From positions 1,630 through 65,629 of IMG/VR virus record IMGVR_UViG_2529293141_000015: 64,000 nt of DNA; one strand, given 5' to 3'. Below, in pieces: positions 29,301-32,300 of the stretch; the stretch's first letter is position 1, and every line of letters starts with the position of its first letter. A program made the position numbers. This stretch comes from a virus (taxonomy: Duplodnaviria; Heunggongvirae; Uroviricota; Caudoviricetes).

Positions 29301-32300
29301 GCGGATTGATGGAGTGGTGGCTAATGATATCGGATAAACTCATAACGCTGGCGAAGGGCCTTTGTGTAATCGTCGGTATTTCATTTTCACTAATGCTGGT
29401 TGTTCTTTTTCTTTTCCTGCCCTGGATGATGTTGTCTTCGTCGGGGATGCTGGGGTAACAGTGACTGATGACATCAGCAGAGCGCTGGCTTTGCTATTAA
29501 GTGGGTGGCGGTTGGTATCGCTGTGTCTCCGATACTGTATGGGCTGGCAAAACTGGTCATTGCGCTGAAATCGTGAACTTTATTTAAACAGATGAGTAAT
29601 GAAATTGCTGTACTGGTCCGGGCAATTCGCTGGTGGTGATATGAACCGTATTCTGTATGTGGTGATTATTGTACTGCTGGTGGCCTGTGGTGCGCTTAGT
29701 CTGGGGCTGAATCATTACCGCGATAACGCCATCACCTACAAAGCGCAGCGCGATAAAAAAGCCAGAGAGCTGGAGCTAGCAAACGCAACCATTACTGACA
29801 TGCAGCAGCGCCAGCGTGATGTTGCTGCGCTTGATGCCAGATACTCAAGGGAATTAGCCGATGCGAGAGCTGAAAATGAAACTCTGCGTGCTGATGTTGC
29901 CGCTGGTCGTAAGCGCCTGCGGATCAACGCCACCTGCTCCGGTACCGTGCGTGAAGGCACCGGCACCTCCGGCGTGGATAATGCAACCGGCCCCCGACTG
30001 GCAGACACCGCTGAACGGGATTATTTCATCCTCAGAGAACGGTTGATGACAATGCAGAAGCAGCTGGAAGGGGCACAGGAATATATCCGCACTCAGTGCC
30101 TGAATTAACAGAGCCAGCTTAATCGCTGGCTTTTTCATATCTGAATTTCATCGCGCATCTCACGCGCATATCACATCCCCGAGCCTTTCAGAAAGTTGAG
30201 CCTGAGAACTGCCGTATATGGTGGCGACCATCTCGGGGCGGCTTTTCTGTGAGACAGGCTCAATTTTCTGAAAGGTAAGACGCTATGAACTATCCGACGA
30301 TTGTTAACGGTATTGATTTCCGCGATCTTGTTTTTGTGACAGGCAACGAGCCGGTGACGGATACCCGAAAGGTTGCCGTAGCATTTGGCAAAGAACACAA
30401 AGATGTATTGCGGAAAACAAGAGCCGTTGTTCAACAATGCTCAAAAGAATTTGCAGAGCGCAATTTTGCGCTTTGCTATGAAAACAATGAGTTACAGAAC
30501 GGTAAACCCCAGCCCATATATCGAATGACAAAAGACGGTTGGACGATGTTGGTATTTGGTTTTACGGGGAAGGCTGCTATGACCTTTAAGGAAGCGTACA
30601 TTCAGGCTTTCAACTGGATGGCTGAGCTTATTCAGCAAGGTCTGGCGAATCTGGAGGCGGAGCGCAACGCTGTAATGCTGGAGTACATGAAAGAGAAAGA
30701 TGTCGCCAGTATGTCAGGTCGTTTGCTCAATCGCTGGGGCAGGGTGAAGAAGCCTCAGTTGCTGGCAAGGCTGGACAGGCTGGAGCAGCAGGGGCAGATT
30801 GCGTTACCCGGATTTGATAAAGGCATTTCAGCCTGACATAGCCATGCGCCGTATCGTCGCCGTATTCCCGCATTAACAGAGACTGCAGCCACCTTATCTG
30901 CGTGAGTGTGCGGGGATAATCAAAAACGATGCACACCGGGTTTTCTCATTTTTCACGAGATGGGAGCGATTTCCCGCGAAGCCGCCTGTCCGGTGCGGTG
31001 GTGGAAGAAACCGGATAAAACAACCGCATTGTGCAAATATCGATCAAATATGGTGCTGCTGTGTGAAATCTGAAAAATCACAGCGGTCATTATGCATCAG
31101 TTTTTAACACAGGACGTCAGAAAGTGACATGGCAAAGCTGGACTGGAAAAAGCTGGAGCAGGCATTCCGACGCGAACATGCCGAAACGGGAATAACATTA
31201 CTGGACTGGTGCCGGAAGAAAAAGATTAATTACAACACCGCCAGAACCCGTATAAAAATGGGCAAAATCGATCATGAAATTGATCATAAAACCGATCATG
31301 AAATCGATCATGACATCTCAGATGAAGAACCCTGCAATGACGCGGGTTCCGGCGATGAAAAATGCGCAAAAAACTCTGAAAAAAACTGCGCAAATTCGGC
31401 AGAAACGAAACGGATTCGTGGTTCCCGACTTTTACCTCCTTCAAACGCTTTTTCTCAGCGAAACACCCACGCCGTAAGACACCGTGGATATGCGAAGTAT
31501 CTTGAGGCAGATAACCTCATGGATGATGCGTCCGACATGGTGCTGTTCGATGAACTGGTGTTCACCCGGGCCCGCGCACTTTCAGTAACTAAGGCACTTA
31601 AAGGGATGTTCGCCGACCTGGAAGAGGCAACTGACGTGGAAACCCGCGTTGCTCTTTACGACAAAATACTCAAAGCTGAACAGGCCCTTGACCGGAATAT
31701 TGCCCGTATCGAGTCAATTGAACGCTCATTGCTGACGCTGGACGTCCTGGCTGAGACAGCACCAAAACTTCGTGCTGACCGGGAAAGAATCAACGCCGCC
31801 AGAGATAAACTCAGAGCGGAAACCGATATTCTGACCAGCCAGCGCCGGGGTGTTATTACGCCAGTCAGTGACATCGTGTCATCGCTGCATGAAATGAGTA
31901 ATTCGGGGAGACTGGATGACATTCCGGAAGAATAAAACGCGATGTGATGAACCTGCAGAAATGACTGAGACCGAACAACGTCTGTTCATTATGACAAAAC
32001 TGAGCAATCCCTGGTGGCGCCTCAATCATCTCTACAAAATACAGAACGAAAAAGGTGAACTGGTCACCTTCAGAATGCGACCGGCGCAACGTCAGTTGTT
32101 TCGTAACATGCATAATAAAAACATTATCCTGAAAGCGCGCCAGCTGGGATTTTCCACAGCCATTGATATTTATCTTCTCGACCAGGCATTATTCATTCCG
32201 CATCTCAAATGCGGGATCGTCGCTCAGGATAAACAGGCTGCCAGTGAAATTTTCCGCACAAAAATTGCTGTACCGTTTGATCATCTCCCTGACTGGCTGA

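Follow-up and report, generated by a model that had tools for sequence, protein, structure and literature searches.

In a prophage related to the Shiga toxin (Stx) phage 933W, four copies of a 12-bp unit, each carrying GATC, lie inside terS, the gene of the small terminase subunit. The question raised by this locus is whether the DNA of the repeats is itself read when the phage genome is packaged, or whether it serves only to encode a repetitive peptide. The prophage is contained in IMG/VR virus record IMGVR_UViG_2529293141_000015, of which positions 1,630 to 65,629 were analysed. This stretch of 64,000 nucleotides is called the window below, and all coordinates refer to it unless a gene is named. 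Comparison of the array with its counterparts in related phages suggests that the four YGATCA units are probably the words by which the TerS protein recognizes a pac site related to that of phage P1.

The repeat array and the TerS protein

The four direct 12-bp units, ATCGATCATGAA ATTGATCATAAA ACCGATCATGAA ATCGATCATGAC, occupy positions 31267-31314 of the plus strand and form the candidate TerS recognition array. Both direct reading and Tandem Repeats Finder (31265-31317, period 12, 4.4 copies, 82% matches, score 78) bear out the repeats that a preliminary description of this DNA had reported. Every unit contains the word YGATCA. Words 1, 3 and 4 are CGATCA (31269-31274, 31293-31298 and 31305-31310, read directly on the plus strand), and word 2, at 31281-31286 on the same strand, is TGATCA, the same as the P1 pac hexamer; the GATC sequences start at 31270, 31282, 31294 and 31306. 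The array is in frame within the open reading frame (ORF) 31129-31935, where it corresponds to terS nucleotides 139-186, with the first GATC at nucleotide 141, and encodes the peptide IDHE-IDHK-TDHE-IDHD, residues 47-62 of TerS.

GATC is strongly depleted over the whole window (1-64000), with 156 sites observed where shuffled sequences give an expectation of 252 ± 12. Nowhere else in the window do at least four GATC fall within 40 bp, the runner-up having three. The exact 12-bp periodicity is accounted for by tandem duplication of one unit, and the spacing alone is therefore not independent evidence of function. A fifth, upstream unit (TCGATCAA at 31040) was considered and rejected, as the window holds 52 such matches where 55 are expected.

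The array had been assigned to a putative small-terminase gene, and this assignment holds. The product of 268 residues (31129-31935, plus strand) matches phrog_370 with an E value of 1.3e-124, and the gene lies directly upstream of terL, which encodes the large terminase (31916-33622, plus strand; phrog_2, E 3.8e-53) and is followed by a P22-type portal gene (33622-35766, plus strand; PF16510, P22_portal, E 1.6e-126). The nuclease half of TerL resembles T4 gp17 (E 2e-7), and Pfam gave no match for either TerS or TerL. The protein is 99-100% identical to the TerS of Stx2a-converting phages, and at the DNA level the terS segment shares 99.4% identity with many records of Stx2a-converting (933W/Sp5-like) phages.

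A model of TerS was built with AlphaFold2 on 52 homologues. The N-terminal part, residues 6-41 (31144-31251, plus strand), is predicted to be a three-helix helix-turn-helix (HTH) domain, in agreement with a match to the profile phrog_1711. Its helices span residues 6-20, 24-31 and 35-41, with predicted local distance difference test (pLDDT) scores of 76-87. The putative recognition helix, YNTARTRIK (residues 35-43; 31231-31257, plus strand), coincides with the model helix 35-41, and the triplet R39-T40-R41 is the part of it that varies with the DNA word among 136 + 34 unique relatives. Residues 46-109 (31264-31455, plus strand) form a linker that is predicted to be disordered (pLDDT <50) and that houses the word arrays, and residues 127-238 form a long helical hairpin with pLDDT >90. 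According to the model, the array begins three codons past helix 3 (YNTARTR), at the very start of the disordered linker. A sequence search of the PDB with TerS gave no match, and a Foldseek search of the PDB with the model gave generic helical-hairpin matches only, all with E >0.1.

Words and recognition helices in related phages

TerS relatives in viral contigs, 38-77% identical to the protein described here, have no GATC repeats. At the equivalent place they carry 5-8 copies of the palindrome TGCGCA, and in many of the 5.8-kb loci all TGCGCA sequences are confined to a stretch of about 100-170 bp (7 of 7 in L056, 6 of 6 in L037). The same N-terminal domain is also found on a different TerS body, of the Terminase_2 type, in prophages of Klebsiella, Escherichia coli and Yersinia. 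In an unbiased test, the most enriched 6-mer was determined in the 190 nucleotides following the helix end for 136 unique 5' ends. The best 6-mer was present in 3-8 copies (mode 6), with a median -log10 P of 7.6, whereas control windows 300 or 900 nucleotides downstream mostly contained 2 copies, and at most 3, with a median -log10 P of 3.2-3.5 and no recurrent word. About 170 distinct relatives (136 + 34 unique) have 3-8 copies of a short DNA word at the equivalent place.

The 656 words of the TGCGCA class fall in each of the three reading frames (467/126/63), and the different tripeptides that they encode number at least 14, among them TAQ, SAQ, PAQ, LRT, CAE and VRK. In the A[Q/H] dipeptides of the linker the alanine codon is GCG in 586 of 609 cases (96%), compared with 25% in the gene body, and the base preceding this codon is T in 588 of the 609. 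The use of three frames, together with the 96% GCG, argues that the DNA has been selected and not the peptide. In the YGATCA arrays of the E. coli and Salmonella lineages the aspartate codon is GAT in 64 of 64 cases, compared with 45% in the gene body, and all 64 are preceded by a pyrimidine. The codon tests, the multi-frame words of the relatives and the Salmonella lineage agree in showing conservation as DNA beyond what coding requires.

The Salmonella lineage was found by a protein search followed by reading of the DNA. Its TerS is 57-61% identical to the one described here; helix 3 is SYNTARTQIK, and the rest of the HTH resembles that of the E. coli proteins of the TGCGCA class. The Salmonella genes contain YGATCA three or five times at exact 12-bp spacing, with the first GATC at terS nucleotide 141, as here. 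The linker peptide, SDQK-SDHK-NDHE-SDQK-NDHN, is unlike the IDHE-type peptide, and the only features common to both are the aspartate and the first two bases of the codon that follows it. The same words written over another peptide are what selection on the word predicts.

Among the sequences compared, the type of word follows the residues of the putative recognition helix. The helix ARR[Y/H][I/L]K is paired with TGCGCA or an overlapping 6-mer in 112 of 113 viral-contig sequences, and ARR[Y/H] occurs with TGCGCA in all 25 species-dereplicated genomes (Citrobacter, Serratia, Yersinia, Brenneria, Xenorhabdus and Aeromonas). The helix AKRYI[K/R/T] is paired with TGCGAA, or its reverse complement TTCGCA, in 10 of 10 viral contigs, in 5 of 5 dereplicated genomes and in one further locus (L437). 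The third helix, ART[R/Q]IK, is paired with YGATCA in 13 of 13 E. coli sequences and in three Salmonella loci. The ARR[Y/H] and AKRY classes each occur on two TerS bodies, phrog_370 and Terminase_2.

The boundaries of the variable region are sharp when terS is aligned with its closest relatives of the TGCGCA class. The identity is about 100% over nucleotides 1-54, drops to 20-60% from nucleotide 54 to about nucleotide 250, a region that encodes helices 2-3 and holds the array together with an acidic spacer, and returns to at least 90% from two TGCGCAA words onward. In sequence terms, the predicted HTH and the array travel together as one cassette. The two TGCGCAA words (31363-31369 and 31387-31393, plus strand) are of the relatives' type and sit 52-76 bp downstream of the array; TGCGCAA is not enriched across the whole window (10 observed, 15 expected). 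These words could be a second half-site or a relic, but this is conjecture. The array of the closest TGCGCA-class relatives is also periodic at 12 bp, and one of its units (ATTGATGATCAA, encoding IDDQ) has TGATCA in phase with the TGCGCA words. The GATC array may plausibly have grown from this unit.

The N-terminal module can be followed as far as the PacA protein of P1. TerS matches phrog_1711, the PacA family, with E 3.4e-5 over residues 5-93, and the Aeromonas-type TerS of L056 matches it with E 1.8e-8 over residues 6-118; PacA itself scores 4e-202 against the same profile. In the reverse direction, P1 PacA matches phrog_370 (E 1.9e-4, residues 3-104). A pairwise BLASTP comparison of TerS with PacA, in which the PacA N-terminus aligns with the N-terminal domain of TerS, gives E 0.009. 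A hidden Markov model built in this analysis matches PacA residues 8-42, and the stretch of PacA equivalent to the HTH matches Pfam HTH_23 below threshold (E 6.6e-4). The matches are modest, reciprocal and located in one N-terminal region, pointing to a PacA-like N-terminal module in TerS.

Several other observations concern the same family. The proteins P0090-P0096 and P0120 have the same C-terminal TerS body with an unrelated N-terminal domain (MNQSEEESLKRDYCAGV... or MDMEALKSDYCAGV...), suggesting that N-terminal readers have been swapped wholesale in this TerS family. In a distant relative from Vibrio phage K250 g1 (L083; OZ196564, 1159-2097), whose helix is NSARVKLK, the DNA past the HTH shows no obvious word array; inspection by eye alone revealed two copies of AATGCNCTNGAT..GAAGCC at a distance of about 57 bp. 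In E. coli O157:H7 7.1_Anguil (L431; NZ_CP076232, 1440-1620) an ISEc8 element of the IS66 family truncates terS exactly inside the first GATC unit. A homologue search with the N-terminal 67 residues alone returned little besides partial E. coli proteins. A scan of viral contigs for GATCAT-N6-GATCAT-N6-GATCAT was discarded, as it gave mostly unrelated repeats; the HTH was present in 19 of 119 stretches, all of them one E. coli allele.

Function of the array and alternative explanations

TerS would consist of an N-terminal HTH, a floppy linker and a helical oligomerisation body, and the DNA that encodes the linker would double as an array of binding words for the protein's own HTH. Several HTH domains of one TerS oligomer may bind the four direct repeats, and perhaps the two TGCGCAA words too. 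Such binding would mark the phage concatemer, TerL would make the first cut nearby, and headful packaging would follow. We infer the binding of TerS to the words and the position of the cut, as well as any role for Dam.

The packaging mode of this type of phage is in accord with such a mechanism. Phage 933W is a high-efficiency generalized transducer (Marinus and Poteete, PMC3752737); the same authors mention that sequencing of its virion DNA ends was not possible, and that this had been interpreted as indicating terminal redundancy. Generalized transduction and apparent terminal redundancy fit headful packaging from a pac site and argue against cos ends. The note "circularly permutated genome" in record PV189405 was rejected as evidence of the ends, because the record simply opens at the terL start codon.

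Several points weigh against a P1-related pac site. P1 has a bipartite layout and an IHF site, neither of which is found here. A second GATC cluster was not found, the nearest other GATC sites being at 31042 and 32215, and the IHF consensus WATCAANNNNTTR was not found with up to one mismatch in 31000-31520, although a consensus scan is a weak test. The distance between helix and array is less than 30 bp, so that their association could partly be the linkage of a few ancestral cassettes. P1 PacA pairs the helix ARRYL with TGATCA; a three-residue "code" is therefore not universal, and the general rule that the word is determined by three helix residues alone was rejected. No paper that maps the ends or names a pac site for Stx/933W-like phages was found in the literature searched. 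The copy number of the unit ranges from 1 to 7 in the databases, as expected of a slippage-prone coding repeat. The usual number is four (of 387 matching records, 350 have an identity of at least 99% to the four-unit query). Identities of 90-95% were obtained for 17 records; the three listed ones are shorter by 12 bp, and reading of one of them (L430) confirmed an intact three-unit terS. Variants with five and seven units exist, and those with two and one are mostly partial or frameshifted genes. Finally, the words of the YGATCA class all lie in one frame and the E. coli allele is nearly clonal, so that direct evidence for selection on the DNA of this class comes mostly from the Salmonella lineage and from the choice of codons.

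These last properties are those of an ordinary coding repeat that would have been duplicated by replication slippage in the DNA for a tolerant linker; GATC would recur by chance of the unit and the DNA would have no role of its own. The 12-bp units are four codons long and in frame, and the linker that they encode is predicted to be disordered. Such a repeat is nevertheless an unlikely explanation of the whole pattern. The Salmonella genes keep the offset and spacing of YGATCA although the peptide differs everywhere but at D-[H/Q], the invariant GAT codons and the pyrimidines before them are at odds with a lack of constraint on the DNA, and GATC is otherwise depleted in this phage. At the homologous position, moreover, about 150 relatives have multi-frame words and fixed synonymous sites.

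Selection on the DNA and linkage to the helix show that something binds, and not for what purpose. The words might thus be true binding sites with a regulatory function, at which TerS or another HTH protein controls the late genes, or, in the GATC class, a high-affinity SeqA/Dam site that ties terS expression or local DNA structure to replication. The 12-bp interval between the four GATC sequences would suit SeqA, which on hemimethylated DNA prefers such spacing. Regulation is, however, a distinctly improbable function for the array: the binding domain belongs to the small terminase, the known task of which is the recognition of pac or cos, the homologous P1 module is part of a proven pac site, and a role for SeqA would leave the GATC-free TGCGCA and TGCGAA classes unexplained. 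A TerS recognition array thus remains the preferred interpretation. The pac-like site of the preliminary description is supported by its position in terS, by the selection on DNA in relatives, by the homology to the P1 module and by the headful type of phage known from the literature; the bipartite layout and IHF site of P1 were not found here.

It is conceivable, although doubtful, that the pac element is in addition gated by Dam as in P1, with binding by TerS or cutting by TerL occurring only when the GATC sites are fully methylated, thus timing packaging relative to replication. Every word contains GATC, the N-terminal module has PacA profile matches, and the lineage's move from GATC-free words to words with GATC went along with an R-to-T replacement in the helix. 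Cleavage at P1 pac is under the control of adenine methylation of the hexamers (Sternberg and Coulby, as cited in PMC10028697). The host Dam enzyme methylates 99.9% of GATC sites in the chromosomes of Shiga toxin-producing E. coli (PMC6602927); the four sites of the array are therefore expected to be methylated. On the other side, TerL is unrelated to PacB, and P1's 4+3 arrangement of hexamers and its IHF site have no counterpart here. The other members of the family manage with GATC-free words, so that methylation control is not inherent to the module and gating would be a lineage-specific addition and not a property of the family.

The preliminary description had also named two methyltransferases of the prophage that might influence the site, and both genes are present. 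One encodes an MT-A70-family enzyme (1862-2488, minus strand; PF05063, E 5.3e-22), the homologues of which carry generic annotation only. As Dam is expected to methylate the array, this enzyme is not needed. VT2-Sakai orf4 was rejected as its match, being an unrelated DUF551 protein. The other is the Eco57I-type methylase of a PstI-like restriction-modification pair (16747-18216, minus strand), next to a BsuBI/PstI endonuclease (15797-16750). Stx-phage enzymes of the M.EcoGIII type methylate CTGCAG (PMC6602927), and this sequence is absent from 31267-31314 by direct reading. The proposed influence of the PstI-like methylase is therefore excluded. The restriction-modification pair directly adjoins a cI-like repressor gene (18311-19024).

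Taken more broadly, the observations allow a tentative generalization, held with somewhat less than even confidence: a portable "reader plus text" cassette of about 200 bp, made up of a recognition helix and the adjoining words, may account for the specificity of packaging in many enterobacterial and Aeromonas prophages as well as in P1, and the Stx-phage lineage may have switched to Dam-site words. As part of this proposal, and with the same reserve, the three classes (RRY-TGCGCA, KRY-TGCGAA and RT[R/Q]-YGATCA) may point to a simple recognition code. Three matched helix/word classes on a mobile cassette appear to be undescribed in the literature searched. If the proposal is true, the switch to Dam-site words would put the packaging of Stx phages under methylation control. 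Phages of the 933W/Sp5 type are medically important and are efficient generalized transducers, and knowledge of their pac site would thus help to predict which host DNA is moved. The natural matched variants of helix and word offer a direct swap test of specific recognition by a small terminase, and the arrays illustrate how DNA encoding a disordered linker can at the same time hold a cis-acting site.

The remainder of the window is that of a 933W-like, stx-negative prophage. Neither stx-sized ORFs nor tRNA genes were found at 24345-25000, between the Q antiterminator gene (23812-24345) and that of a NanS-like esterase (25000-27018), and the prophage thus lacks stx at its usual position. Genes of Rz and of a Rha-type regulator precede terS. 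At 1399-1462 the 9-bp unit GCTGCACTG is perfectly repeated in tandem, with 7.1 copies (Tandem Repeats Finder score 128); translated from the minus strand, it would give (SAA)n, (QCS)n or (PVQ)n. In the early region, an ORF with a transposase/integrase core domain (rve; 7556-8374) suggests the insertion of an insertion sequence. A tail-fibre-like ORF (40319-42115) has collagen triple-helix repeats, with Tandem Repeats Finder arrays at 41057-41125, and the structural region ends with an ORF of 2806 residues (55398-63818) that has LPD38, LPD5, LPD1 and MuF_C domains ("large polyvalent protein").

Comparison with known packaging systems

The P1 pac site is among the closest known parallels. In both phages the words are inside the gene of the small subunit, downstream of an N-terminal HTH. 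The P1 hexamers, TGATCA/G, contain GATC, as do the four YGATCA words, and unit 2 is exactly TGATCA. They start at pacA nucleotides 194, 201, 213 and 228 and at nucleotides 324, 336 and 347, so that 12-bp spacings are found in pacA as well (201 to 213 and 324 to 336). In P1, too, the words outlast changes in the peptide: in a relative 70% identical to P1 the hexamers have been retained and the peptide has changed. The hexamers of P1 have been mutated synonymously with the aim of lowering the packaging of its genome (PMC10028697).

The two sites differ in their layout. In P1 the hexamers are grouped into clusters of four and three on either side of the cut, separated by about 90 bp; the annotated cleavage sites, at pacA nucleotides 275-285, fall between the two groups, with an IHF site alongside. 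The array described here is a single, strictly periodic GATC cluster, with no match to the IHF consensus in a weak scan. The P1 hexamers start with T, while C is the first base of three of the four words here, and the P1 helix is ARRYL where that of TerS is ARTRI. The body of TerS is unrelated to the C-terminus of PacA, and TerL is not detectably related to P1 PacB (BLASTP E 5.4). The analogy to P1 that had been proposed for this site thus extends to the homologous N-terminal module and the equivalent place of the hexamers, and stops at the TerS body and TerL. The likeness would so reflect shared ancestry of the N-terminal module of reader and array, and not of the rest of the machine.

In a recent review, specific recognition of pac by small terminases is described as an unclear and controversial matter, binding in vitro being weak and sequence-independent for P22, Sf6, SPP1 and SF6 (PMC9611059). 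SPP1 and SF6 resemble the present system in having repeated short boxes (pacL and pacR) in and next to terS, read by the HTH domains of G1P on the TerS oligomer through multiple weak contacts (PMC4737164, PMC9611059). They differ in that there is no detectable sequence relationship, and the SPP1 boxes are few and lie partly upstream of the gene. For SPP1, demonstrating specific binding in vitro has proved difficult (PMC9611059), and a natural set of helix/word variants, such as that of the family described here, was not found in the literature searched.

P22 is a short-tailed headful phage in which pac is likewise inside terS, and its type of portal is the one encoded here. Its pac, however, is a single, non-repeated, asymmetric sequence of 22 bp in gene 3, and its TerS belongs to another family. 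Lambda differs in being a cos phage with unique ends, IHF dependence and R-elements that are situated outside the coding region and bound by a protein of another family. Nevertheless, its cosB site shares with the array the arrangement of several R-elements next to the cut, which are read by the N-terminal winged HTH of gpNu1.

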